Below are positions 178 through 54,920 of a stretch of 64,000 bases of DNA, piece after piece. The position numbers and the translations under genes are program-made. The notes under the pieces were generated by a model. The model saw only the letters and a list, made by a program, of their open reading frames with translations, had not been told where the DNA came from and made no database searches. The stretch is from Candidatus Woesebacteria bacterium (GTDB lineage Bacteria; Patescibacteriota; Microgenomatia; UBA8517): assembly GCA_013374835.1 (NCBI GenBank), contig CP055307.1, forward strand, positions 813,304 to 877,303, in the 5' to 3' direction. Numbering within the stretch: the stretch's first letter is position 1; every line of letters begins with the position of its first letter.

Positions 178-894
178 ATGGGATTATCAAAAACATTTCA
201 TGAAACTATCGGTGTTGGTATTGCAAAAGCAAGAGAAGCTGCTGCAAAAAGAAGATTAAAGGAATTAGAGCCAGGAGAACACTTAGTAGAACCAATGCCT
301 GTATATATAAGTCAATTTGCAAATGCAGATAGAAATCTAATTGAAGGGTTTTATAGACGAATTAAGGATAAAGTTGCAGCAGAAAGATTCGGAGCCGAAG
401 ATCTAAACCAATTTAGCTATTGGGCGTGGAGATCTTGTGGCATCGCTTGTATCCAGGCAGTACTTCAGACAGTCTATGAATACCGTGGTGATAAATTTGA
501 ACTAACTACAATGGATTTGATTCGAGAGGGGTTAGAGTTGGGTAGATATGATATTGAAAAAGATGTCGGTTGGTATCACAAAGCCTTAGTCGATCTTTCC
601 CGTAAACACGGATTGGAGAGTTGTATGCAAAAATTTATTCCCGCGCCCGAGATAGCTTTAATTATATCAAATAATAATTATGTCATTTCTTCAGTAAAAA
701 GTAATAGCGGTGGTCATTTGTTGCTTTTATATGGTTTTAAATTAAAGAGAAAAGACGAACTTGTGGGTTTTTGGTATCACGATCCTAATAATTTTAAAAC
801 CGATGGCATGAACAGATTTATATCCAAAGAAGAATTCAACAAATTGTCGACACGCAGAATTATAAGGATATCTTTAAAGAATCAATTGGTTTAA
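178..894 (+). CDS. papain-like cysteine peptidase domain protein (peptidase C39-like)
   Basis: Cys in [12 protein letters not shown] and a downstream His ([10 protein letters not shown]) in the spacing expected for the C39-like fold. No signal peptide. No adjacent ABC transporter. Confidence 0.45.
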
Positions 895-2864
895 AGCTTG
901 GTTTTATTTAGAGAGAGAGCATTGAGAACGACTATTATTGAGCTAGCGCTCATGAAAAGAGCCCCCCATTCGGGTCTTAGTAATATCTCCCACGGGTAGA
1001 AAACTCCCGCTGCAGCTGGAATTGCAAGAACATTATAACCTGCTGCCCAGAAAAGATTTTGCTTTATCTTTGTGTTTACTATTCTTGCAAGCTTAATAGC
1101 TTTTACAACATCCATGATGTTACTTTTTACAAGAATTATTTCTGCCGACTCTATGGCCACTTGAGTTCCTGCTCCTATTGCAATTCCCACATGAGCTTGA
1201 GTTAGGCTTGGTGCGTCGTTTACTCCATCCCCTACCATAGCGACCACGTTATTCTTTTTCTGCTTCTGAAGTGCCTTAATTTTTTCAACTTTTTCGTCGG
1301 GCAAAACCTCTGAATAAACCGTATCTATTGAAAGCTCTTTTGCCACTTTTTCGGCAACTTCCTTTTTATCGCCAGTAAGCATTGCTACTTTTATCCCCAT
1401 TTCGTGAAGCATTCTAACGGCTCTTTTTGACTCCGGACGTATACTATCCTCAAGAGAAATTTCGCCAATGAACTTTTTGTCTCTAGCTACTAGGACTTCA
1501 GTTTGAGAGAGTTTTTCTTCAAGTTTAGGAATTTTTATGCCGTATTTTGCCATCATTTTCTTGTTTCCCATCAATACTCTTGATCCACTCACAATTCCTT
1601 CTGCGCCTTTGCCGGGGATGGATTTGAAAGATTTAACAGGATTTATTCTAAGACCCCTTTTTTTTGCTTCTTTTACTATTGCCTTAGCTATTGCGTGCTG
1701 AGAGTGGGATTCTAGAGAAGCTGCAAGTGCAAGTGTAGTGTTGTTGGCTACTTTTGATACTTGGAATTCGCCTTGAGTCAGAGTTCCTGTTTTATCGAAA
1801 ACAATGTAATCTATTTTTTTTAAAGCTTCAAGGCCTTTCATGTCTCTTACTAATATTCCGTTCTTCGCTGCAATAGCGGACGAAATTGTTGTAACAGTGG
1901 GAATGGCAAGACCTAATGCGTGCGGGCAGGCTATTACTATCACAGCAATTGCGAGCGTAACTGCAAATACCGCGCTTTGTCCTGACACCGCGTACCAAAA
2001 AATAAATGTGCCAACGGCTATTGTTATTGCGGTGAAGGTTAAATATCTTGCTGCTTTATCTGCAAGAGCTTGAACAGCAGGTTTTGAATTCTGAGCAACA
2101 CTTACTAAATCCATTATTTGAGAAAGGGCTGACTCTTTACCTGTTTTGGTTATTTTAACCGTCAGGCTCCCATTTTGGTTGATGGTGCCACCAATTACAC
2201 TACTCCCCTTTCTTTTTTCAACAGGCACAGATTCACCTGTAAGCATTGATTCGTTTACCAAAGATTCTCCGCTTATGACCACTCCGTCTGCCGGTATGCT
2301 TTCGCCCGGCTTAACTAAGACAAGGTCGCCTTTTGAAAGAGACGAAGTATCTATATCAATAATTTCTTTGCCCATAATTTTGTGCGCCTTGGAAGGAATG
2401 AGCTTTGCAAGCTCTTTTAAGGCTCCACCTGTTTTGGATACTGCTCTCATTTCCATCCAATGTCCGAGCAGAAATGCCGAAACCAATGTTGATATCTCCC
2501 ACCAGAGTGACTCTGCCGGAAAAAGAAAAGTGCTTGAAGCCGAAAATAAATATCCCGAAATAACAGCCAAACTGACAAGAGTCATCATTCCGAAGTTTTT
2601 TGTTTTAATTTCTTCTTTTGCCGCTTCAAAAAAGGGCGTGCCGCCATAAAGCGATACCGCCGTACCAAGAAGAAAAAGCGCTAAATTTTTATATGGAAAG
2701 TTTATTGCAAAATTAAACCACTCGCCTATTTTTGGCGAAAGAAAGAGTATGGTAACGGTAAGAGGAAGAGTTATTAAAAAGCGCCTTCGGAAACCTTCTG
2801 CCATCGATCGATGGTGATCTCCATGATTTACGTGCGTATGGCTATGGTCTTTCATGCTTGGCAT
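891..2864 (-). CDS. copB: heavy-metal (copper) translocating P1B-type ATPase, CopB-like subtype
   Basis: DKTGTLT phosphorylation motif, GDGVNDAP hinge, TM6 CPH motif (CPHALGLA), TM8 MSASS, and a His-rich N-terminus ([12 protein letters not shown]). The start overlaps the upstream rhodanese gene by 13 nt. Confidence 0.9.
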
Positions 2865-4048
2865 GCACCTCTCCCTTGGTTACTTTGATAGGGTAAATCC
2901 CCTACTTCTTTGTATATTCTCGCAGCTCCTTGCGCCGATGAGTAATCATTCCCCAGAGCGGTTTTTGCATCTACCGTATCCCATTTTATACCCTGCCTTT
3001 CGAAAAAAGTTGCCAAATATAAATATGTGTCAGGAAACCACATTGAATTCAGAGATAGAATGTATTTGTAAATTTCTCCCTCGCTTTTCCCTTCTGATAC
3101 AAGGAGTTCTATCACTGCAAGCGCCGCCATGCCGTGATTGCAATCCGGGAAGGCTGTGTGATTGCCACAGCATGGTCTATAAATATTTGAGGCTATTTCA
3201 TAGACTCTTTGCTGCTCGTCTTGGGTAAAATTTATCAAGTTAAGCTTGCCTAGATAATTTGTTGCATTTCCTTTGGATAGCGTCCAGCCTCCGGTTGATG
3301 CGAAGTTGCCTTTGGTGTCTTTGTAGGTAGTTCCCATAGGGCCTACTTCATATACTAAGCTTCTCTGAGCAAGTCCCAATGCCCAAAGGGTATTGAGAAT
3401 AAAGCGACTATTTTGATTATCAATCTTAATCAAGCTGTCTGAGCCTTTTGTCAGTATAAGCCTTTGTTCGTCAGTAAGGCTCATGAGTTCTCCATATTTT
3501 TGGTAATCTATCACGCCTGTTTCGACCAACTTCTTGGCTGTATTTTTCCAACCAACCGGAAGTGTTACCCCGTCTTGCGGAGCTATTTTATTTACTAACT
3601 TTGACAGGTCAAGCGTTTGGTATCCCGCTTTTTTCCATCCTTCCATACCACCTGATAAGTAGCTTACGTTTTTGTAACCTAAGCCCTTTAGTGTCTGAGC
3701 GGCTTTTTTACTCATGGATCCGGTTTTGCAATAAAGAATAATTCTAGCTTCTTTATCTTTAGGAAGCTTTTCCTTACTTGCAATTAAAAAATCATATTCT
3801 ATAAATAAATCTGTCTTTTCGATTTCACCCTCATAAGGAGTGTGGACGTTTATAAAAATAAAATCTTTGTTTTGGAGATTATCGCTAAGCTCTCGTATTG
3901 AAATATCTGAGACTCGATTTTTGTCTTTGTTAATCAAAACTCCCGATCGCGTTGCTAATAGCATAATACCCGGAAATACGGTGCCTAAAAGGATAATCTT
4001 TCGAAAACTAAACTTATGAAGTTTTTTTGTAAATTTATTAGATAACAT
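2852..4048 (-). CDS. membrane-anchored rhodanese-domain protein with a Cys-rich C-terminal domain of unknown function
   Basis: N-terminal TM helix. Rhodanese active-site region is [15 protein letters not shown]...GGMEGW. A roughly 250-aa C-terminal domain carries [14 protein letters not shown]. Translationally coupled to copB. Confidence 0.6.
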
Positions 4049-4571
4049 AATTTATTAGATAAAAAACAACAAAACTTAATAAAAGCATCGCACCAAGACT
4101 AAAAATTATCGGCTGATACGGGAAAAGAACCTTTCCTTTTGATTTTTTAATCGCTTGGTTTATAAGATCCGTAGAATAAAAGATGGCTCCGCCAAAAACA
4201 ACACCGAATACCAGCTTTGGGAGATTTAAGATTAAGCCGTTGTGTTCATTTACCAGTCCGAACTTATAAAAAGAGAGAACGGTGAGTATAAAAGTCGCAA
4301 GATATATTACAAACGATTGCATAGGGATAAAGCGTTTCTTTAGTGTATTTGCAAACCAGAGGCTCATTGCCCCAAGAAATGCCGCAAACCATATGCCCGT
4401 TATGGAGTCGTCTATTCCCAATATTCTTGAGAAAGAAAGGCCGGCTCCGGCACCGGCTACGCAGAGAGGACAATGGGCATGTGCCAAAGGCGGATTTAAA
4501 AGTGAAAGGTTAAAAATAAAAAAAAGCTGAAAAAAAAGAACAAAAATATACTTGAGCATTGAATTTTTCAT
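4038..4571 (-). CDS. polytopic membrane protein with HAHCPLC motif
   Basis: Several hydrophobic helices and HCPLC near the first helix. Overlaps neighbours by 11 nt and 7 nt gaps, so operon context supports it. Confidence 0.5.
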   Translation of the reverse strand: MKNSMLKYIFVLFFQLFFIFNLSLLNPPLAHAHCPLCVAGAGAGLSFSRILGIDDSITGIWFAAFLGAMSLWFANTLKKRFIPMQSFVIYLATFILTVLSFYKFGLVNEHNGLILNLPKLVFGVVFGGAIFYSTDLINQAIKKSKGKVLFPYQPIIFSLGAMLLLSFVVFYLINYVI

Positions 4572-4577
4572 TTATTC

Positions 4578-5072
4578 TCAATTTACTACTGTGCCCTCAA
4601 ACTTTAATTCCTTTATGCCTTCAGGATCTGAAAAGAAAAGCCAAACAATTCTTTCAAAATATCCCATGCCCTCAGATCCATGCGCCGCCGGGTCGAATTC
4701 TACTTTAACCGTCGCCACTTCATCGGCTGGAATATCTATATTGATTGGAGGATTTTTGTCAGTCGCGTGCTCCATTCCGAATAATTTTGACTCCTTACCA
4801 TTTATCGAAATAGAAGCATTAGTGCACATGCATGAAGTTGCTATTTTTTTTAGCTTTATAGATTTTCCCGATTTGTTTATTACCTTGTATTCTTTTTTTA
4901 CAAGTCCACCGTTTATTGGGACATTGCCTAAATCATAAGACGCGGGGTCTACGCTAACTGCGCCCACTTCGCCCAAAACTTTATTTTTGCCATCATTAAA
5001 TGTAGAAATACCTACGATTGAAAGAAATGAAATAATAATAAGAAATAAAAATGTTTTAATGTCTTTTCCCAT
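4578..5072 (-). CDS. secreted protein, DUF1573-like (TSCxCT motif)
   Basis: N-terminal signal/anchor followed by a beta-rich domain with TSCMCTNASI, resembling the conserved SCGCT of DUF1573 family proteins. Confidence 0.45.
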   Translation of the reverse strand: MGKDIKTFLFLIIISFLSIVGISTFNDGKNKVLGEVGAVSVDPASYDLGNVPINGGLVKKEYKVINKSGKSIKLKKIATSCMCTNASISINGKESKLFGMEHATDKNPPINIDIPADEVATVKVEFDPAAHGSEGMGYFERIVWLFFSDPEGIKELKFEGTVVN

Positions 5073-5343
5073 TTTTTTCCGACTTTCTAAAAACGGATAC
5101 TATTTCTTCAATTAATTTCTTCTTTTTTGCAGGAGGCGAGCTGATTTTATCCAATACGCATGTCTCAAGGTGTCCTCTTAAAATTATTTCATCTACTTTT
5201 TTAAGTGCTGCCTGGACTGCTTGAGATTGATGGATGATATCGGGACAGTACGCCTCTTCTTCAACCATGCGAATTACTTTTTTTAGGTGTCCGTCAATTA
5301 TCAAAAGCCTTTTAGATGTTTGTTTTTTGATTTTATTATTCAT
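5056..5343 (-). CDS. csoR: copper-sensing transcriptional repressor, CsoR/RcnR family
   Basis: YCPDIIHQSQAVQAALKKVDEIILRGHLETC gives C-x24-H-x3-C ligand spacing, as in Cu(I)-CsoR. I moved the start to the ATG at 5343, which is preceded by the G-rich SD GGGGGGGGTAGGG. The ORF track began at an upstream TTG at 5364. Confidence 0.8.
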   Translation of the reverse strand: MNNKIKKQTSKRLLIIDGHLKKVIRMVEEEAYCPDIIHQSQAVQAALKKVDEIILRGHLETCVLDKISSPPAKKKKLIEEIVSVFRKSEKNGKRH

Positions 5344-5346
5344 CTT

Positions 5347-5404
5347 ATTCCCTACCCCCCCCAAAGGGATATTAAATATTAAAAATAAATCTTTAGTTTG
5401 TCAA
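5347..5404 (-). promoter_or_regulatory. consensus sigma70 promoter (TTGACA-N17-TAATAT) with GC-rich pseudo-palindrome/G8 tract in the 5'UTR of csoR; putative CsoR operator
   Basis: Minus strand reads TTGACA (5404-5399), a 17-nt spacer, TAATAT (5381-5376), then ATCCCTTTGGGGGGGGTAGGGAAT (5370-5347) directly before the csoR ATG. Inverted TCCCT/AGGGA arms flank a G8 run. Confidence 0.55.
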
Positions 5405-5410
5405 TGCTGA

Positions 5411-5836
5411 TTATTCAACTACCAGCGTTCCTTCCATTCCAAGCTGTCTGTGATTGCCTATATCGCAGTAGAATGTGTAAATTCCAGGCTCCGCTTCGAA
5501 ACTAAATTCCATACCACTTTTAAGGTTTTCTTTAACTCCCAGCTCGTCTATCACAAAAGTGTGAATACCGCTGTTTTCCGCTACTTTGATAGTAATTTTC
5601 GGACCTTTTACCGTAATCTCGTTTGGTTCAAAGAAATAATTGCCTGATCTTATTTCAACCATTTCTATTTCAGCTTGATCGCTTTCCGCAGACTCTTTAT
5701 CAACATTTTCCCCTACCTCTTGATTGCTAGTAGTCATAAAAACATTTTGATTTCCTTTACCTTTAAAAACATAAATTCCTACTAATAGCAGCACTATTAC
5801 ACCAAGTGCTACTATAATGCCAGTATTTTTAATCAT
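5411..5836 (-). CDS. membrane-anchored cupredoxin (azurin/plastocyanin-like type-1 copper protein)
   Basis: N-terminal TM anchor. His in SGIHTF. C-terminal FYCDIGNHRQLGM gives C-x4-H-x4-M, the azurin-like ligand spacing. Confidence 0.75.
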   Translation of the reverse strand: MIKNTGIIVALGVIVLLLVGIYVFKGKGNQNVFMTTSNQEVGENVDKESAESDQAEIEMVEIRSGNYFFEPNEITVKGPKITIKVAENSGIHTFVIDELGVKENLKSGMEFSFEAEPGIYTFYCDIGNHRQLGMEGTLVVE

Positions 5837-5852
5837 CAGCTATCACCCCCTT

Positions 5853-6335
5853 TTAATCTAGATATTTATCCGGGTTTTTTTTGAACATATCTAAACAAGT
5901 TTTTTTACAAAAGTAGAATTGACGTTTTTTATACTTATAAGAAAACGGTGCTGTTTTGGGACACAATCTTGTTTTACAGACAGGATCGTGCGCCAAAGGG
6001 ACAAGATCACTCATTTTTTTATTTAAGATTTTTTCGAAATCTGTATTTTTGTATTTTTTGATCAAAAACTCACGTATAAGGCTTGTTGATTTAATAAAAT
6101 TAGGATCTGAAATTTTATAGAAAACATTTTTGCCTTTTTTATTTGTTTCAACAACGCCCGCGTCGCGAAGGATGCCAAGATGCTGACTTAGATTGGCTTG
6201 TGGAATATCGAGCATTTCTTCGATTTCTGCAACACATAGTTTTTTGCTTCCAAGAAGGCTTATTATTTCCAATCTTTTAGGGTGGCTTATGGCTTTAAGA
6301 AGATCAGCGTGGAGTTTGAATACTTGATGATACAT
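5853..6335 (-). CDS. ArsR/SmtB-family HTH regulator fused to a C-terminal Cys-rich YHS/TRASH-like metal-binding domain
   Basis: wHTH region LCVAEIEEMLDIPQANLSQHLGILRDAGVV. C-terminal tail CKTRLCPKTAPFSYKYKKRQFYFCKKTCLDMFKKNPDKY. Confidence 0.75.
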   Translation of the reverse strand: MYHQVFKLHADLLKAISHPKRLEIISLLGSKKLCVAEIEEMLDIPQANLSQHLGILRDAGVVETNKKGKNVFYKISDPNFIKSTSLIREFLIKKYKNTDFEKILNKKMSDLVPLAHDPVCKTRLCPKTAPFSYKYKKRQFYFCKKTCLDMFKKNPDKYLD

Positions 6336-6377
6336 ATTCGATATTTCGAATATATTACTTTCTAAGTTTTAAGTCAA
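6334..6377 (-). promoter_or_regulatory. promoter-operator cassette copy 1: TTGACT-N17-TATATT overlapping perfect palindrome ATATTCGA-TATT-TCGAATAT at the ArsR-like start codon
   Basis: Minus strand: TTGACT (6377-6372), 17-nt spacer, TATATT (6354-6349). The palindrome at 6334-6353 runs into the ATG at 6335-6333. The cassette lies in the last codons of ccdA. Confidence 0.5.
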
Positions 6378-7086
6378 TAAGCGCTTCTGAATTTTTTAAA
6401 ACAAAAGCCGAGAGAGTTCCGTATATACCAGTTAACATTAAAACGCCGAAAATTATTAATAATATACCGGATATTTTTTTTATATTTGGCCCGTATTTAT
6501 TTAGTATTTTTAACTTGGGGTAAAAAAAATCAAACGACAATCCGATTAATAAAAAGGGTAAAGAAAGACCCAGCGAAAATAAAAAAAGAAGAATTAGCGC
6601 AGAAGAAAAGGCTTGGGAAAAACTTATCCAAAGAAGTATTGTTGCCAAGACAGGTCCCACACACGGGGTCCATGAAAAAGCAAAAAACGCGCCAAGAATA
6701 AACCCTCCTGCTAAAGAGAATTTTGTCGGCCTCCGGTTTATAGAATAAGTTTTGTAGAATAAATCTATCTTTATAAATTCACCTAATAAAAGCCCCAGAA
6801 ATATAATTAGTACTGCCGAAACTAATCTAATGAATTCGCTATACATCGCTACGGATCTGGCTAGCGAATTTATTGTTGCTCCCATTATAAAAAATACCGA
6901 AATAAAACCCAGAGTAAAAAGTACTGCGTTTTTTAAAAATATTATTTTTGATTTTTTGTTTCCAATACCCGACGCTGAAAGATAGCTAACATAAATGGGG
7001 GCTATGGGGACTAAACAACCCGCAAAAAAAGTTAAAAAACCGGCAATAAATGAGGTCAAAAAATTAACGATCGAAATCGGAGGCAT
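6355..7086 (-). CDS. ccdA: cytochrome c-type biogenesis / thiol-disulfide transporter CcdA (DsbD-beta family)
   Basis: Six-plus TM helices with the conserved Cys-containing motifs FLAGCLVPIAPI and SWTPCVGP. Confidence 0.8.
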   Translation of the reverse strand: MPPISIVNFLTSFIAGFLTFFAGCLVPIAPIYVSYLSASGIGNKKSKIIFLKNAVLFTLGFISVFFIMGATINSLARSVAMYSEFIRLVSAVLIIFLGLLLGEFIKIDLFYKTYSINRRPTKFSLAGGFILGAFFAFSWTPCVGPVLATILLWISFSQAFSSALILLFLFSLGLSLPFLLIGLSFDFFYPKLKILNKYGPNIKKISGILLIIFGVLMLTGIYGTLSAFVLKNSEALIDLKLRK

Positions 7087-7091
7087 TAAAT

Positions 7092-7829
7092 TTAATTAAG
7101 CATTGCGTCAACCGCGCTTTTTAGCTGATCAAGCGGTATAGCTCCGGGAATTAGTTTTGTTTCTCCTGTTTCAGTATTTAGGAGTATATTTCCAGGCGTG
7201 CCGGTAACACCAGCACGGACACCCGAGTCGTAGTCAGCACTTACCAGATCTGCCGTTTCGCCCGAATCAAGACATGTTTGGAATCCTGCTTGATTTAATC
7301 CAATTTCTACAGCAAAATCAGGAAGAAGTGCTAGATCCAGACCATTATTCGCCGGGGTTACTTCGAATATTTTATCTATATATTGCCAAAAAGCTTCTTC
7401 TCCACCAAGCTTTCCTGCGCATTCTGCCGCCTCTGCCTCTTTAGGCGCTTTTGAATGTAGCTGCTCCAAAGGAAAATGCCTATAAACCCACATAACTTGA
7501 CCATTATACTCCTCCATTAACCTTTGTACAGTTTCATGAAAGTTCTTACAAAAAGGACACTCAAGATCCGAGTATTCTATAAGCGCTAACTTAGCACCTC
7601 TATCGCCTCTTACCCAATCTTTATCTGTGACTGGATCGACATCTTTTGCTATAGGCTCGACGGGAGCTGTTGGATTATTTTTTAGCGCATTCGAAGCTTC
7701 ATTTTTGGAAAGCACTTGCCCCTTTTCCATCATTTTTACTTTTGTCCAGAGGCTACCGATTATAAACGACCCAACAACAAGAGCGATAACCAGTAAGTAA
7801 ATGAAGGCATTGTTTTTGTTAATATTCAT
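7092..7829 (-). CDS. membrane-anchored thioredoxin-fold thiol:disulfide oxidoreductase (DsbA/TlpA-like, CPFC active site)
   Basis: DLECPFCKNFHE CxxC motif in a thioredoxin-like domain. N-terminal TM anchor. I placed the start at the ATG at 7829; the track used an upstream TTG at 7871. Confidence 0.75.
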   Translation of the reverse strand: MNINKNNAFIYLLVIALVVGSFIIGSLWTKVKMMEKGQVLSKNEASNALKNNPTAPVEPIAKDVDPVTDKDWVRGDRGAKLALIEYSDLECPFCKNFHETVQRLMEEYNGQVMWVYRHFPLEQLHSKAPKEAEAAECAGKLGGEEAFWQYIDKIFEVTPANNGLDLALLPDFAVEIGLNQAGFQTCLDSGETADLVSADYDSGVRAGVTGTPGNILLNTETGETKLIPGAIPLDQLKSAVDAMLN

Positions 7830-7871
7830 ATTCAATATTTCGAATATATAAACTCTTTTAACCCATGTCAA
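7828..7871 (-). promoter_or_regulatory. promoter-operator cassette copy 2: TTGACA-N17-TATATT overlapping palindrome ATATTCAATATTTCGAATAT at the thioredoxin-like gene start
   Basis: Minus strand: TTGACA (7871-7866), 17 nt, TATATT (7848-7843). The 20-bp palindrome at 7828-7847 differs from copy 1 by one base and again overlaps the ATG at 7829-7827. Confidence 0.5.
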
Positions 7872-7878
7872 CTACCAA

Positions 7879-8610
7879 TTACTCAATATGCGCAAGGACA
7901 TACATAAGAGAAATGCCGAGAATAAAAATGGCGAAATAGATAAGAGATTTTTTGAGACTTGTTTCATTTCTTATTTCTGGCATTAAGTCTGATGAAGCAA
8001 TATATATAAATCCTCCTGCTGCAAAGGGTGTCAGAAATTCTATAAATATATATCTATAAGAGGAGATATAGTAGCCCATCAAACCACCTAAAACAACCAT
8101 AAGAGCGACACAAAAATTGAGGATAAGAGCCTTGGATTTTCCCCACCCTGCATAGAGAAGTACACCGAAATCACCGATTTCTTGAGGTATTTCATGTAGC
8201 GCGACTGCTACGACCGTAACCCAGCCGAGTCTTACATCAACCAAAAAACTTGAAGAGATAATAAGCCCGTCGATAAAATTATGAACAGAATCTCCTATCA
8301 AATTCATTATACCCATCGCATGGCGATCGCATTGTCCTTTATGGCAGTGGCGCCAATGAAAAATTTTCTCAACCAGAAAAAAAACGATAAATGAAAACAA
8401 AACTAATAAAAATGCCTTTTCTGCTTCGAAATTTTCAAGAGATGCTGGAAGAAGATGAAGAAATGCGCCACCCATAAGAGATCCTGCTGATAAAGATATC
8501 ATATAGAATATAGCTCGCTCAAGCGTTTTTGTGGCAATTCCAAGAGTGAAAATCCCAATCAAAGCCCCGGACGATATTAGAAATGTGGAAAAAACTATAT
8601 ATAAAATCAC
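7879..8610 (-). CDS. zupT: ZIP-family divalent metal (zinc/iron) transporter, ZupT-like
   Basis: HNFIDGLII and HEIPQEIGDFGVLL signature helices of ZIP transporters. Confidence 0.8.
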   Translation of the reverse strand: MILYIVFSTFLISSGALIGIFTLGIATKTLERAIFYMISLSAGSLMGGAFLHLLPASLENFEAEKAFLLVLFSFIVFFLVEKIFHWRHCHKGQCDRHAMGIMNLIGDSVHNFIDGLIISSSFLVDVRLGWVTVVAVALHEIPQEIGDFGVLLYAGWGKSKALILNFCVALMVVLGGLMGYYISSYRYIFIEFLTPFAAGGFIYIASSDLMPEIRNETSLKKSLIYFAIFILGISLMYVLAHIE

Positions 8611-8784
8611 TTACAAGCATTCTAGCACAATTTTTAATTGCTGTAAGTTTAAATTATTGTATCACCTTTTCTTATGACCTTCCGATTAACACATTGACTA
8701 CCCCGCCTCTGTTCTGTAGGATTTAATAACCTTTTTAAGAGTAATTAAGTCGTTTCTCATAAGCATGATGGTGGATTATGCAGT

Positions 8785-9093
8785 ATGGAGTTACCTTTGT
8801 TAAAATTAATTATGGATGAAACAAAAAAGCTTCTGGTTTTGAAAAAAGATGGATCAAGTGAAGTTTTTAACCCCGATAAAATTGCTAAAGTTGCACATGC
8901 GGCTGGATTAAGCGAAGATGAAGCCCTTGATATCTCCGAAAAGATAACCAATAAATTGATGAAAGAAAACGCAAATAAAATAACAAGCCTCAGAATTAGA
9001 AACATGGTGGCTTTCGAGCTTAAAAAAAGAGATAAATACGCCCATGACCTTTATATTTGGTACGAAAAGACAAAAGACAAAAATGGCCGCTAA
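8785..9093 (+). CDS. stand-alone ATP-cone domain protein
   Basis: KKDGSSEVFNPDKIAKVAHAAGLSEDEALDISEKITNKL...ITSLRIRNMVAFEL matches the ATP-cone fold. There is no NrdR zinc ribbon and no RNR catalytic domain. Confidence 0.5.
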   Translation: MELPLLKLIMDETKKLLVLKKDGSSEVFNPDKIAKVAHAAGLSEDEALDISEKITNKLMKENANKITSLRIRNMVAFELKKRDKYAHDLYIWYEKTKDKNGR

Positions 9094-22047: not shown

Positions 22048-22599
22048 TTAACCTAGAAGTTCTTTTTCTTTTGCCTCCCCCAGTTCGTCTAATAATTTAT
22101 TGTATTTATCGACCAAATTTTGGATACTTTTTTCATGCTGGAATCTTTCGTCTTCTGAGATTTGTTTTTTTTCAAAGCTATCTCGAACTGCGTTTATTGC
22201 ATCAACTCTTATTCTTCTTATCATTATTTTACCCTGTTCGAGCTTTGAGTTTAGCAGTTTAACAAATTTTTGTCTGTCCTCTGTTGTAAGAGGCGGAATT
22301 GAAATTCTAATAATATCACCGTCTATTGAGGGGTTAAAGCCTAAGTTTGCAGCAATAATTCCTTTTCTAATATCGCCGATTATTGATTTATCCCATGGGT
22401 CGATAACTATTGTCTGGGGATCGGGCGATGTAATTGAGGAAAGCTCGATTAATTTTAGTTTTTGTGTGCCGCCATAAGCGTCTATTATGATATTTTCTAC
22501 AAGTGAAGGAGTTGCGCGACCTGTTCTTATGCCCGCAATATCGGACTTAATAAGATTAACAACCTCATCCATCTCATGCTTAATCTTGGCTTCATCCAT
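22048..22599 (-). CDS. frr: ribosome recycling factor
   Basis: Full-length RRF pattern (DAYGGTQKLKLIELSSITSPDPQTIVIDPWD). Confidence 0.9.
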   Translation of the reverse strand: MDEAKIKHEMDEVVNLIKSDIAGIRTGRATPSLVENIIIDAYGGTQKLKLIELSSITSPDPQTIVIDPWDKSIIGDIRKGIIAANLGFNPSIDGDIIRISIPPLTTEDRQKFVKLLNSKLEQGKIMIRRIRVDAINAVRDSFEKKQISEDERFQHEKSIQNLVDKYNKLLDELGEAKEKELLG

Positions 22600-36720: not shown

Positions 36721-37755
36721 CTAACTTGTAATTTTTATTTTTTTGAGCAGCGAGTTGTCGTGAAGCAGTTTTCCACATCCCCGAGCAACACAGGAGATTG
36801 GATCATTTGCAACTTCTACTTTTGTTTTTGTGGCTTCTGAAATAACTTTGTCGATACCCTCAATCAGCGATCCACCTCCGGCAAGAACTATTCCTGACTT
36901 TAAGACGTCCGATAAAAGCTCGGGAGGGGCTTCTTCAAGCGAATCTTTTACGTGTCCTACTATTTCTTGGATTATAGGTGCAAGGGCTTCGCGAACTTCA
37001 TCGCTTGAAAGTTTTTGCGATCTTGGAAGGCCTGTTTCCAAATCTCTGCCTCTTACTACTAAAAATTTTTCTTTTGTAGCAGTTGCAGATCCGATACCTA
37101 TTTTGATTTCTTCAGCTGTAGGCTGACCCAAAAGCAAAGAATACTTTAGCCTAAAATAGTTTATAATTGCCTCATCCATTTCGTCTCCCGCTACTCTTAT
37201 TGATCTGCCCAGCACTATGCCGCCAAGTGAAATTAACGCAATTTCAGTAGTACCGCCTCCGATATCCACGATAAAAACACCGTTTGGATCCTCTATGGAA
37301 ATATCCGCGCCAATTGCAGCGGCAACAGGCTCTTCCACAAGACAGGCGTACCTAGCTCCTGCTGAAAGTGCCGCATCAACTACGGCTCTTCGCTCTACTT
37401 CGGTTACACCGGAGGGAATACCAACAACCACTCTTGGTCGGGGTATTTTGGGTATTGTTGAACCGGATTCGTGGACTTTTTTAATATAGTAAGATAGCAT
37501 TGCCGAAGTCGCATCAAAATCCGCTATGACTCCGTCTTTTAACGGTCTTATTGCTTCTATTGAAGCAGGAGTTCTACCCACCATTTTTTTTGCGGAAGCA
37601 CCAATACTAAGAATTTCTTTTGTTTTTTTATGTCGAGCAACTACCGAGGGCTCTCGTATTACAATGCCTTTTCCTGCAACGAACACAAGAGTGTTTGCTG
37701 TGCCAAGATCTATTCCTATATCATGACTGAACAATCCAAAGAGTCTATTGATCAT
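36721..37755 (-). CDS. mreB: rod shape-determining actin homologue MreB
   Basis: DIGIDLGTANTLV phosphate-1 motif and the full-length MreB pattern. Confidence 0.9.
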   Translation of the reverse strand: MINRLFGLFSHDIGIDLGTANTLVFVAGKGIVIREPSVVARHKKTKEILSIGASAKKMVGRTPASIEAIRPLKDGVIADFDATSAMLSYYIKKVHESGSTIPKIPRPRVVVGIPSGVTEVERRAVVDAALSAGARYACLVEEPVAAAIGADISIEDPNGVFIVDIGGGTTEIALISLGGIVLGRSIRVAGDEMDEAIINYFRLKYSLLLGQPTAEEIKIGIGSATATKEKFLVVRGRDLETGLPRSQKLSSDEVREALAPIIQEIVGHVKDSLEEAPPELLSDVLKSGIVLAGGGSLIEGIDKVISEATKTKVEVANDPISCVARGCGKLLHDNSLLKKIKITS

Positions 37756-45132: not shown

Positions 45133-46053
45133 TTAATGTGTATCTCGCACCAGTTCCGGTTGAACAAAAGCGTTCATATAGGTTTCTATGAATTCTTCGT
45201 TTATAATTTTACCTTTTTTGTTTACTGTTAATTTTACTAACAATCCTTTTTTTGTTTCTTCGCTCCACATTTGATCAAAAACCAAATTACCAAGCGAGTA
45301 ATAAATTGGTTTTCCTTCTAGATACTCTATCTTTTGTACCCAGTGCGGGTGATGACCAGCAATTACGTCTGCCCCGCTCTCAACTATTTTTTTAGCCAAA
45401 TCTTTTTGATAAATTTCAGGCTCAGATTTATACTCCACTCCCCAGTGGATACCGACAACAAGAAAATCAACTTCTTTTTTTGATTCTGAAATCAGCTTAA
45501 AATCTAAATCTTTAGGAGTGTTTGTTAAAAAATCGAATCCGAGAAAACCTATTTTTATATCCCCTACTTTTATTGTTTCAAGATTATCAAAGCCAACAAA
45601 TTTTATCCCAGATTGGTCCAAAATTTTTTTTGTTTCTTCTATCCCTTCTTGTCCGTAATTACTCGCATGGTTGTTGGAAAGAGTTACAACGTCAACTCCA
45701 GCGAATAACAAACCTTCAATCATTTTTGGATCTGTGCAAAATTTAAATCCACTATCTGTTTTTGGACAACCGGATACGATAGGGTTTTCAAGATTAACAA
45801 AAAAAATATCGGCACTTTTTGTTAAATTTGCAATTTTTCTAAACGGATAAGCATAATCTCCTGTCTTAATACTTTCTATCATTACAGATCTAGCGAGCAT
45901 TACGTCCCCTCCGAGAAGGATTGTGGCCGTTAATTCCTGTTGAAGTTTAGACTTGGACAAAGGGGTTGTTTTAGGTACATTTTTATTAAGAAACAAGGAT
46001 GAAATTGCCAATACAAAAATAAAAATTACTAAAATTGAAGCTGCTATTTTCAT
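45133..46053 (-). CDS. capA: CapA/PgsA-family metallophosphatase (poly-gamma-glutamate capsule biosynthesis-like)
   Basis: N-terminal anchor and the CapA pattern ILLGGDVML...FVNLENP...GHHPHW. Confidence 0.75.
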   Translation of the reverse strand: MKIAASILVIFIFVLAISSLFLNKNVPKTTPLSKSKLQQELTATILLGGDVMLARSVMIESIKTGDYAYPFRKIANLTKSADIFFVNLENPIVSGCPKTDSGFKFCTDPKMIEGLLFAGVDVVTLSNNHASNYGQEGIEETKKILDQSGIKFVGFDNLETIKVGDIKIGFLGFDFLTNTPKDLDFKLISESKKEVDFLVVGIHWGVEYKSEPEIYQKDLAKKIVESGADVIAGHHPHWVQKIEYLEGKPIYYSLGNLVFDQMWSEETKKGLLVKLTVNKKGKIINEEFIETYMNAFVQPELVRDTH

Positions 46054-53780: not shown

Positions 53781-54920
53781 TTATTTTTTAGTTAGAATTA
53801 ATACGTAGCTTCTTCTATCAAAAGTGTTTTTAATATTAATTCCAGGATGTAATATTTTATCAATTTCTGAATAATCCAATTTTTTGATCTCGAATCCTAG
53901 AAGTTTTGATATTTGTTCAATCGCTTCAGGATTGGAATTTTCTGGTGTTACTGTTTCTAGAATAATCAATCTACCCCCTGTTTTAAGAAGTATATAAGCT
54001 TTTTCTAGAATTGCCTCAGGATCAATTGTGTCTTTGTCTGTTAATCCGCGTTTTATAATATATCTTTGACCTGTTGAGCCAAAAACGTCCTTTGCCAGTA
54101 AAAGATCAACTGAGCCTGGTGATATTGTAGAATCATCAATATTCCTAAAATCAGCAGTTATTGGTATTTCGTTTTCATGGTAAGTTAATCTTGAAAGATC
54201 TTCTGCTCTTTCCGGATTTCTTTCTATAAGATACATGGTATCTCTATTCACATCGATAAATTCTGGATTCAAAAAAATAAGCGAATTATTTGTACCAGCG
54301 CCGATATCAACCGCTATTCTTCTTTGCCCGGACTCATCTTCTTTGCTTTTATCAACATCTGCTCTTTTTTTGAAAACAAATGCTATGTTATCTTCTCCCG
54401 TAGCCGCTTCTAAGCCTTCATCAAATATTTTGTTGACTTCGTAACCTTTATACTTTTCTTCAAGTTCAAAACCTGCAGCTATGTAACTTTTTTCAATTTC
54501 ATCGGCCAGTTTGTTTGAATCTTGATTGATGGGAATTGCTGTTTCAAGCACAACGACTTTGCCTCCCTGAGATGCAACCCGATAACTTTCAGATGCAATA
54601 GAACTAATATTAATATCAAAAAATTGTCCGCTAAAACTGCCATCAGGCCTTAGAGTGTTTAGTTCTCTTGAACTAAACAAGTCTTTTGAAAAAATTAGTT
54701 TTGTAGATTCATCACGTAAAGGCATTCTAGATCCGTCGGCTATAACTGGTATTAAGTTGGTATCTTTATAGTGTTTTGATAAACCTTCTAGCCAGATCGG
54801 GTCTTTTTCAAGAAGAACTGCTCTATCTGTTTTCCAATTGAATAAATCTAGCCGCAGGCTCTCGATATTTGACGTAACTCTGGGACCAATTTCTACAGCG
54901 AGAGTATCGGGGCTATCCAT
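53781..54920 (-). CDS. protein with two tandem class-I SAM-methyltransferase-like halves
   Basis: Half 1: LAVEIGPR, IADGSRMPL, GKVVVLE. Half 2: IAVDIGAGT, ITADFRNI, GGRLIILE. Confidence 0.5.
   Translation of the reverse strand: MDSPDTLAVEIGPRVTSNIESLRLDLFNWKTDRAVLLEKDPIWLEGLSKHYKDTNLIPVIADGSRMPLRDESTKLIFSKDLFSSRELNTLRPDGSFSGQFFDINISSIASESYRVASQGGKVVVLETAIPINQDSNKLADEIEKSYIAAGFELEEKYKGYEVNKIFDEGLEAATGEDNIAFVFKKRADVDKSKEDESGQRRIAVDIGAGTNNSLIFLNPEFIDVNRDTMYLIERNPERAEDLSRLTYHENEIPITADFRNIDDSTISPGSVDLLLAKDVFGSTGQRYIIKRGLTDKDTIDPEAILEKAYILLKTGGRLIILETVTPENSNPEAIEQISKLLGFEIKKLDYSEIDKILHPGINIKNTFDRRSYVLILTKK

Follow-up and report, generated by a model that had tools for sequence, protein, structure and literature searches.

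We analyzed a 64,000-nucleotide stretch of a Candidatus Woesebacteria genome (contig CP055307.1, positions 813,304 to 877,303 of the forward strand; this whole stretch is called the window below) and found on its minus strand two promoter-dyad cassettes about 1.5 kb apart. One precedes a gene pair for a DsbA/thioredoxin-like oxidoreductase and a CcdA-type transporter (promoter P1, dyad O1), and the other precedes arsR-YHS, a gene for a regulator that joins an ArsR/SmtB winged helix to a C-terminal YHS/TRASH domain (promoter P2, dyad O2). We conclude that O1 and O2 are probably operators of the ArsR-YHS protein encoded at 6335-5853, which would be a copper-responsive autorepressor. We infer from sequence which protein binds, whether it represses or activates, which metal it senses, where transcription starts, and how translation begins.

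The cassettes share the minus-strand 22-mer TATATTCGAAATATCGAATATG, which stands at 6354-6333 and, with one mismatch, at 7848-7827. At up to three mismatches this 22-mer matched exactly twice within the 64-kb window and not once in 100 dinucleotide-preserving shuffles, and with two copies in 64 kb against none expected we rejected chance, or a repeat scattered through the genome, as its origin. A repeat search returned both cassettes as a 26-nt direct repeat of 92% identity, and their likeness ends at this 26-nt core plus the −35 box. A looser half-site pattern at three mismatches was not enriched (8 found, 5.4 expected), so only the two full sites count; a lone half-site, TTCGAATAT at 7359-7377 inside the dsbA-like coding region, is probably there by chance. 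As the preliminary description had stated, the two copies are near-identical and each stands behind TTGACx-N17-TATATT. When 7 kb were scanned for consensus promoters, P1 ranked first with 11/12 matches to the sigma-70 consensus, and P2, with 10/12, tied with seven other sites at the next rank. In the sister genome described below, the two cassette copies (L144) align at 77% over 74 nt, which is a weak hint that the pair arose by duplication.

Several details of that earlier description needed adjustment. It had ended the cassettes at 6334 and 7828, one base short of their true ends at 6333 and 7827, and it had called copy 1 a perfect 20-bp palindrome. In O2, the spacer AATA (4 nt) instead separates two arms of 8 bp that match perfectly, ATATTCGA and TCGAATAT, and 18 of 20 positions are symmetric. 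The single mismatch ascribed to copy 2 was found in one arm of O1 (C to T), and the O1 counterpart in the sister genome has the core arms ATATTCGA/TCGAATAT without a mismatch. Copy 1 had also been placed inside the last codons of ccdA. That is right for its −35 box and spacer, which the last seven ccdA codons hold, but the palindrome itself falls between ccdA and arsR-YHS, in a gap of 19 nt; only the outermost base of the 24-bp dyad defined below, 6355, belongs to ccdA, as the last base of its stop codon (TAA, 6357-6355). The P1 −35 box sits in a 49-nt gap between the stop codon of a ZIP transporter gene (7879) and the dsbA-like ATG. Both final ATGs are the start codons, as first described: 6335 is the only possible start of arsR-YHS, with no in-frame start upstream, and all 25 aligned homologs begin Met-Tyr there, and the ATG at 7829 precedes an N-terminal membrane anchor that aligns with homologs.

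Strong evidence for an operator came from relatives of the regulator. The ArsR-YHS family comprises 360 proteins at E ≤ 1e-5, almost all of them from Patescibacteria. From a scan with one genome per species, which gave 361 relatives, we kept the best 80 loci, 78 of which, from species genomes of Patescibacteria, were usable for aligning the 70 nt before each arsR-YHS ortholog. The closest is Candidatus Woesebacteria UBA1430 (L001), whose regulator is 96% identical in amino acid sequence; it is the sole exception in a set whose regulators are otherwise 46-64% identical to the window protein. At 64 of the 78 loci, ATATTC-N8-GAAT occupies −18 to −1 and ends exactly at the arsR-YHS ATG. The symmetry continues into positions outside the filter that selected these loci: A at −20 is matched by T at +4 in 64/64, and C at −19 by G at +3 in 33/64. 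Because these outer positions mirror each other, the conserved dyad is 24 bp long, A-Y-ATATTC-N8-GAATAT-G-T from −20 to +4, and takes in the ATG and the first base of codon 2, while its central 8 bp are rich in A and T but vary between loci and often lack self-complementarity. This constraint on the DNA may help to fix the N terminus of the protein, where Met-Tyr is invariant and the +4 T pairs with the −20 A. Over the 908 kb of loci plus the window, base composition leads one to expect about 0.3 exact core matches (a hand estimate); we counted 93 at zero or one mismatch, 73 of them exact, and almost every one lay at an arsR-YHS start.

For most of the 14 exceptions there is an explanation. 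The dyad is shifted by 2-15 nt in L004, L016, L036, L039, L052, L072, and L080; L064 has an extra codon; and in L003, L007, and L012 arsR-YHS lies inside an operon whose promoter holds the site further upstream. In L007 (5930-6001), the arsR-YHS gene that follows the dsbA-like gene also has a good TTGACT-N17-TAATGT promoter without a dyad, which looks like an unregulated internal promoter. Two other loci carry tandem dyads 41-44 nt apart upstream of arsR-YHS (L010:13-73 and L050:5939-6002), an arrangement that could allow cooperative binding.

Promoters fall into two registers relative to the dyad. At the 31 loci with T at −19 (class A), the window included, the −10 box is TATATT at −19 to −14 and the best −35 box starts at −42 or −43 (19 of 25 placements); at the 33 loci with C at −19 (class B, for example L013 and L060), TAATAT-like hexamers at −12 to −7 act as the −10 box, and 27 of 31 placements put the start of the −35 box between −37 and −35. 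The distance from dyad to ATG is constant, whereas the promoter shifts by 6-7 nt, and in each register one dyad position is sacrificed to form the −10 box. The core promoter is covered in both. Such covariation would be expected of a repressor site that is forced to overlap the core promoter. In 64 of 78 species the dyad thus spans −20 to +4 of the regulator's own gene, over the −10 box and the predicted start, and this agrees with the autoregulation by ArsR-YHS that had been suggested at the outset.

The registers also bear on how the transcripts would begin. The −10 box in the window ends 13 nt before the ATG, at −14, and transcripts of this type are predicted to start near −7, with a leader of about 7 nt (AUCGAAU), which would place the window starts at about 6342-6340 and 7836-7834. 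In the 33 relatives of the other register, with the −10 box at −12 to −7, transcription is predicted to start at the A of the ATG (+1) and the transcripts would be truly leaderless. The preliminary description had called the window transcripts "leaderless or nearly so"; the geometry fits "nearly," and a start at the A is predicted only for the other half of the family. Because the operator abuts the arsR-YHS and dsbA-like ATGs, it leaves no room for a Shine-Dalgarno sequence before them; the cupredoxin gene that follows arsR-YHS has one of its own (GGGGGTGA). Short leaders are probably common throughout this genome and not special to the cassettes. With crude open reading frame (ORF) calls across the whole window, a Shine-Dalgarno-like motif preceded 9 of 72 genes, and −10-like hexamers piled up with their ends at −11 to −7 from start codons in 18 of 71 genes, about threefold above background; mRNAs with a very short leader or none may be the rule here. 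Examples from the window are 45133-46053(−), 53781-54920(−), 22048-22599(−), 36721-37755(−), and 7879-8610(−). At L016:2015-2100, a promoter-operator of the same kind, TTGACA-N17-TATATTCGAATATGCGAATAT, drives a DUF1573 gene together with genes for a CCGN...DCNHG protein and a membrane protein; here the leader is about 50 nt long and contains an evident Shine-Dalgarno sequence, AAGGAG, and therefore the operator is not tied to leaderless starts.

The protein that we take to be the binder belongs to the ArsR/SmtB family by its HTH_5 domain, its NCBIfam match (NF033788, 86.1 bits, cut-off 55), and its fold. An AlphaFold2 model, with a mean pLDDT of 92.3 and block means of 87-95 in the YHS domain, matched Rv0081, SmtB, HlyU, SqrR, and BigR with target-normalized TM-scores of 0.71-0.84; among solved structures we found none with both helix-turn-helix (HTH) and YHS domains. 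The N-terminal domain is 31-34% identical to SqrR and BigR, which are among the best sequence and fold matches. The C-terminal domain matches Pfam YHS (39.5 bits, cut-off 30.3) and, weakly, Arc_trans_TRASH. It carries the YHS/TRASH signature (C-X19-22-C-X3-C) as C120-X22-C143-X3-C147, which is invariant in 25 aligned sequences and contains their only invariant cysteines; residues 1-100 of that alignment hold none. The kinship with SqrR extends to the DNA. In Rhodobacter, the deduced SqrR recognition site is ATTC-N8-GAAT, which also lies within the footprint of Escherichia coli YgaV over its own promoter (PMC9774250), and operator oligonucleotides of the SqrR/YgaV class have been published (bioRxiv 10.1101/2020.03.22.001966). 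The core of the window dyads (ATATTC-N8-GAATAT) is this same ATTC-N8-GAAT, and the ArsR/SmtB operator form earlier ascribed to the dyad is supported by this match to a published motif as well as by the 64 of 78 genomes in register.

Gene context points to copper. Among the 80 loci, arsR-YHS usually heads a copper operon: 66 have a CopA-like ATPase gene within 6 kb, which in 61 of them follows arsR-YHS on the same strand and in 30 is the very next gene, often overlapping the stop codon. Four examples that we tested pass the Cu-ATPase (P1B-1) model TIGR01511 with 600-636 bits (cut-off 397) and have HMA domains. Other immediate neighbors encode DUF1573 proteins (12 loci), multicopper oxidases (3 loci), an HMA-DsbD_2-cupredoxin fusion, and the uncharacterized CCGN...DCNHG protein. 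Copper is the most likely effector because of these copA- and cupredoxin-type neighbors, the YHS/TRASH cysteines, and the precedent of archaeal HTH-TRASH regulators; the preliminary description had treated Cu, Zn, and Ag as equally open, and their equal standing does not survive a gene context that favors copper.

It had also proposed that the thioredoxin-like/ccdA pair is coregulated with arsR-YHS, and here the comparison is supportive. A second cassette before the dsbA-like gene and ccdA is common to the window and its sister genome (L001/L144), and in L003 and L007 the dsbA-like gene directly upstream of arsR-YHS has a TTGACx-N17-TATATTCATAATAYTGAATTA promoter; the DsbA-like proteins of the window and L007 are 44% identical. 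With sites of the same type at the dsbA-like gene in three further species genomes (L001/L144, L003, and L007), control of envelope thiol-disulfide genes by ArsR-YHS would thus be recurrent. The operator also precedes other genes of the cluster in L012 and L016. Copper stress is tied to periplasmic disulfide repair, as in the Scs and DsbC systems, and control of dsbA and ccdA would fit that link.

We propose the following mechanism. The metal-free ArsR-YHS dimer would bind the dyad A-Y-ATATTC-N8-GAATAT-G-T, cover the −10 box, predicted start, and start codon, and so block RNA polymerase at P1, which would drive the dsbA-like gene and ccdA, and at P2, which would drive arsR-YHS together with the cupredoxin gene. 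Binding of a thiophilic metal, most likely Cu(I), to C120-X22-C143-X3-C147 would then detach the protein from the DNA and so turn on its own gene, the cupredoxin gene, and envelope thiol-disulfide repair. On a wider scale, ArsR-YHS is perhaps the main copper sensor of Patescibacteria, with a 24-bp site that packs the −10 box, start, operator, and first four coding bases together. Since an operator that contains the start codon is also found with ArsR proteins that lack YHS, as described below, this design could be an ancient and widely distributed autorepressor module whose transcripts have a very short leader or none. We rate this wider idea as nearly as likely as not.

Several observations weigh against our reading. 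At residues 122 and 125 the window protein carries Thr and Cys, in contrast to the Met and Ser of more than 90% of its relatives, giving its YHS region four cysteines (C120, C125, C143, and C147) in place of the three cysteines plus methionine of relatives, and its metal site may differ from theirs. The P-type ATPase of the window does not lie behind O1 or O2 but at the end of the csoR-like operon next door, and the DUF1573 and CCGN genes likewise stand behind the csoR-like gene and not behind arsR-YHS; in this genome it is therefore the cupredoxin gene, together with homology to other species, that ties the system to copper. The invariance of arm positions −17 to −13 and −2 to −1 among the 64 loci was imposed in part by the selection filter. 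Extra operator copies within 6 kb on either side are rare (5 of 80 loci: L001, L012, and L016, plus the tandem sites of L010 and L050), which would make the two-cassette arrangement a trait of the window lineage and not of the family. In model bacteria, an mRNA with a 7-nt leader and no Shine-Dalgarno sequence is poorly suited to translation.

We were concerned that ArsR-YHS might bind the dyads in response to something other than copper: Zn, Cd, Ag, Hg, or a reactive sulfur species or oxidant acting on its three cysteines as in SqrR and BigR. The closest characterized DNA-binding domains include persulfide sensors, a rhodanese fusion, a dsbA-like gene, and ccdA are all encoded in the cluster, a ZIP transporter gene adjoins P1, and the YHS region of the window protein has the four cysteines noted above. 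However, the sensing cysteine pair of SqrR/BigR has no invariant counterpart in the winged-helix domain, and the protein scores 70.6 bits against the BigR model (NF040642), under its cut-off of 155. The dominant neighbor in the family is a Cu-type P1B-1 ATPase with HMA domains, multicopper oxidase and cupredoxin genes occur as well, and the sister genome retains both cassettes without having the ZIP gene. We regard a noncopper effector as unlikely.

Other explanations would do without ArsR-YHS altogether. The palindrome could act as an RNA hairpin that hides the AUG and controls translation or stability, with no protein-binding DNA site. In RNA reading through from P1, copy 1 can indeed form a 10-bp hairpin of −9.2 kcal/mol (z = −3.3) that takes in the A and U of the AUG, and copy 2 reaches −5.0 kcal/mol, but transcripts from P1 and P2 themselves would lack the left arm, since both promoters are predicted to initiate within the dyad or beyond it, and most species have arsR-YHS as the promoter-proximal gene. 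The arm sequences are constant and do not covary, the central 8 bp are often noncomplementary (positions −12/−5 in 29 of 64 loci, −10/−7 in 28 of 64), and Rfam gave no match at the site, with none at E up to 1 in 4800-9000 and only tRNAs in the whole window. With a hairpin confined to read-through RNA and a pattern of variation that does not support it, we consider this form of control very unlikely. It is hardly more credible, and if anything less so, that another regulator such as the CsoR-like repressor 500 bp downstream binds the dyads, or that they are simply a conserved core-promoter or initiation context without a repressor. A second metal-sensor gene does lie next door, and part of the conservation could belong to the promoter, since the left arm doubles as the −10 box. 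Yet the dyad accompanies arsR-YHS in 64 of 78 genomes and the CsoR-like gene occurs in only 4 of 80 loci; that gene has a G-tract pseudo-palindrome of its own, and we rejected the CsoR-like protein as the binder on these two grounds. The right arm, GAATATGT, has no promoter role and yet mirrors the left arm and is equally conserved, and the −10 box moves between registers over a dyad that stays put.

The same design appears outside the family. We scanned metagenome sequence with the pattern ATATTCKAWWWWWYGAATATGV, chosen to exclude codon 2 of arsR-YHS. Among the matches listed, most were chance matches with short ORFs; in 19 the ATG opened an ORF of at least 90 amino acids, and 14 of these 19 were ArsR-family genes and one was the dsbA-like gene of the sister genome. 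A search by DNA motif alone thus led back to the protein family, which speaks for ArsR-YHS as the binder. The scan is unfit as a census of the regulon. YHS-free ArsR genes whose start codon is the ATG of ATATTC-N8-GAATATG came from other, partly GC-rich metagenome contigs (L087, L088, L107, L124, L138, L148, L156, L159, L180, L183, and L189). Most of their proteins share a Q-x-x-[LIV]-S-Q-H-L recognition helix, which reads S-R-H-L in L107 and L180; in the window protein the recognition helix is PQANLSQHL. The placement of an operator within a start codon would therefore seem to reach beyond the ArsR-YHS family of candidate-phyla-radiation (CPR) bacteria.

Coordinates of the cassettes and the surrounding genes are collected in Table 1.

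Table 1. Features of the cassette region and its neighborhood, in window coordinates.
Feature	Position	Strand	Remarks
Copy 1		minus	TTGACT 6377-6372, 17-nt spacer 6371-6355, TATATT 6354-6349, CGAAATATCGAAT 6348-6336, ATG 6335-6333
Copy 2		minus	TTGACA 7871-7866, 17-nt spacer, TATATT 7848-7843, CGAAATATTGAAT, ATG 7829-7827
P1 −35 box, TTGACA	7866..7871	minus	17 nt from TATATT 7848-7843; together 11/12 to sigma-70 consensus
P1 −10 box, TATATT (left arm of O1)	7843..7848	minus	class A register, −19..−14 from ATG
O1, putative operator	7826..7849	minus	24-bp dyad, −20 to +4, ATATATTCGAAATATTGAATATGA; includes dsbA-like ATG 7829-7827
P2 −35 box, TTGACT	6372..6377	minus	within ccdA codons I-D-L; 10/12 to consensus, 17-nt spacer
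P2 −10 box, TATATT (left arm of O2)	6349..6354	minus	from sequence and consensus scan
O2, putative operator	6332..6355	minus	24-bp dyad, −20 to +4, ATATATTCGAAATATCGAATATGT; includes arsR-YHS ATG 6335-6333 and T of codon 2
ZIP transporter	8610-7879	minus	
Membrane-anchored DsbA/Thioredoxin_4-like oxidoreductase, 245 aa	7829-7092	minus	Pfam Thioredoxin_4 2.7e-21, DSBA 3e-14; first gene of P1 unit
CcdA/DsbD-type thiol-disulfide transporter, 243 aa	7086-6355	minus	Pfam DsbD_TM 1.9e-16; second gene of P1 unit
ArsR/SmtB winged-helix regulator with C-terminal YHS/TRASH domain, 160 aa	6335-5853	minus	Pfam HTH_5 2.4e-14, YHS 5.5e-10
Membrane-anchored cupredoxin, 141 aa	5836-5411	minus	Pfam Cupredoxin_1 1.2e-09, Copper-bind 4.3e-06; second gene of P2 unit
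P3 control region	5347..5404	minus	TTGACA-N17-TAATAT and G-tract pseudo-palindrome ATCCCTTTGGGGGGGGTAGGGAAT, in front of csoR-like gene
Adjoining csoR-like operon	891..5364	minus	Pfam and BLAST tallies
CsoR/RicR-like repressor	5343-5056	minus	
DUF1573	5072-4578	minus	
Membrane protein, 177 aa	4571-4038	minus	
Rhodanese fused to CCGN...DCNHG domain	4048-2852	minus	
P-type ATPase without HMA domain	2864-891	minus	end of csoR-like operon

Two different putative copper sensors, the CsoR/RicR-like repressor and ArsR-YHS, are adjacent in the window. The promoter of the csoR-like gene, P3, is at 5404, and its G-tract site lies at 5370-5347; we found no ATATTC-N8-GAATAT-like site at up to three mismatches in this region, which is separate from the AT-rich operator system. 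Several gene families of the csoR-like operon stand directly behind arsR-YHS in other species. One of them, with the motif YRPCC(G/D)N...F(P/Q)DCNHG, occupies the C-terminal 250 amino acids of the protein at 2852-4048 (−) and recurs at L012:5039-5998 and L016:2649-3611. It has no Pfam match and is present in 21 of the 80 arsR-YHS loci, and in L012 the ATG of its gene is embedded in the operator in the same register as that of arsR-YHS. The sister genome (L001 and L144, compared over L144:1-1300) shares 93% nucleotide identity with the window, and this homology begins at about 7861, inside P1. The ZIP gene is missing there and an ATP-cone gene stands directly upstream in its place; the ZIP gene is thus a lineage-specific insertion or loss beside the cassette.

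CPR bacteria are almost all uncultured, and we know of no experimentally defined transcription-factor site in them. A limited literature search found none, and it also found no paper on ArsR-YHS fusions (ArsR plus a YHS domain) and none on leaderless genes in CPR bacteria. One paper reports that the anti-Shine-Dalgarno motif is lost only in a Parcubacteria subgroup (PMC9297842). The present analysis offers a concrete regulator-operator pair with a predicted effector, conserved across many CPR lineages, and a predicted small regulon that consists of copA, DUF1573, the CCGN...DCNHG protein, multicopper oxidase, cupredoxin, and DsbA/CcdA. The pair could be rebuilt in vitro or in E. coli with no need to culture the organisms. 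The promoter shifted by 6-7 nt over a fixed operator forms a natural series, useful for comparing short-leader with leaderless initiation.

An ArsR-family autorepressor acting on an inverted repeat over its own promoter is a textbook mechanism. Classical ArsR/SmtB repressors are homodimeric autorepressors that metal releases from DNA, and SmtB, CzrA, CadC, and NmtR share with the window regulator the winged-helix fold, confirmed by match, and AT-rich inverted repeats over their own promoters. Their metal sites, in contrast, lie in the core fold (alpha3N and alpha5), whereas the invariant cysteines of ArsR-YHS are only in the appended YHS domain. Leaderless repressor mRNAs are also known, as for lambda cI from PRM and tetR of Tn1721, where the start codon is at or next to the transcription start and there is no Shine-Dalgarno sequence. 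Unlike these, the start codon here is part of the operator dyad itself, and for the window transcripts the prediction is a leader of about 7 nt and not an AUG at the very 5' end. The regulator gene stands before copA in the CopY, CsoR, and CueR systems too (CueR being an activator), but those are unrelated protein families with unrelated operators; the CsoR-type operator is a G/C-tract pseudo-palindrome, and O1 and O2 are AT-rich.

Closer parallels exist for each half of the protein. The persulfide-sensing autorepressors SqrR, BigR, and YgaV have the same winged-helix fold, and the SqrR/YgaV operator, ATTC-N8-GAAT, lies as here over the RNA-polymerase recognition and start region of its own operon (PMC9774250; bioRxiv 10.1101/2020.03.22.001966). 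ArsR-YHS differs from SqrR and BigR in lacking the conserved sensing cysteine pair in the winged helix, in falling under the BigR equivalog cut-off, in having the extra YHS/TRASH domain, and in its neighbors, which are copper-export and not sulfide-oxidation genes; it resembles this subgroup in DNA recognition without being a member. The archaeal HTH-TRASH copper regulators (Sulfolobus CopT/CopR and Halobacterium VNG1179C) join a DNA-binding domain to a C-terminal TRASH domain and are encoded beside a copper P-type ATPase (PMC3600143). ArsR-YHS shares both the fusion and the adjacency to copA, but its HTH is of the ArsR type and theirs is Lrp-like, and VNG1179C is described as an activator, whereas a site over the −10 box and start would indicate repression; ArsR-YHS is best seen as an analog of CopT/CopR and not a member of that group. 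The system that we propose thus combines the autorepression of ArsR/SmtB proteins, DNA recognition of the SqrR type, and a sensor of the TRASH type.

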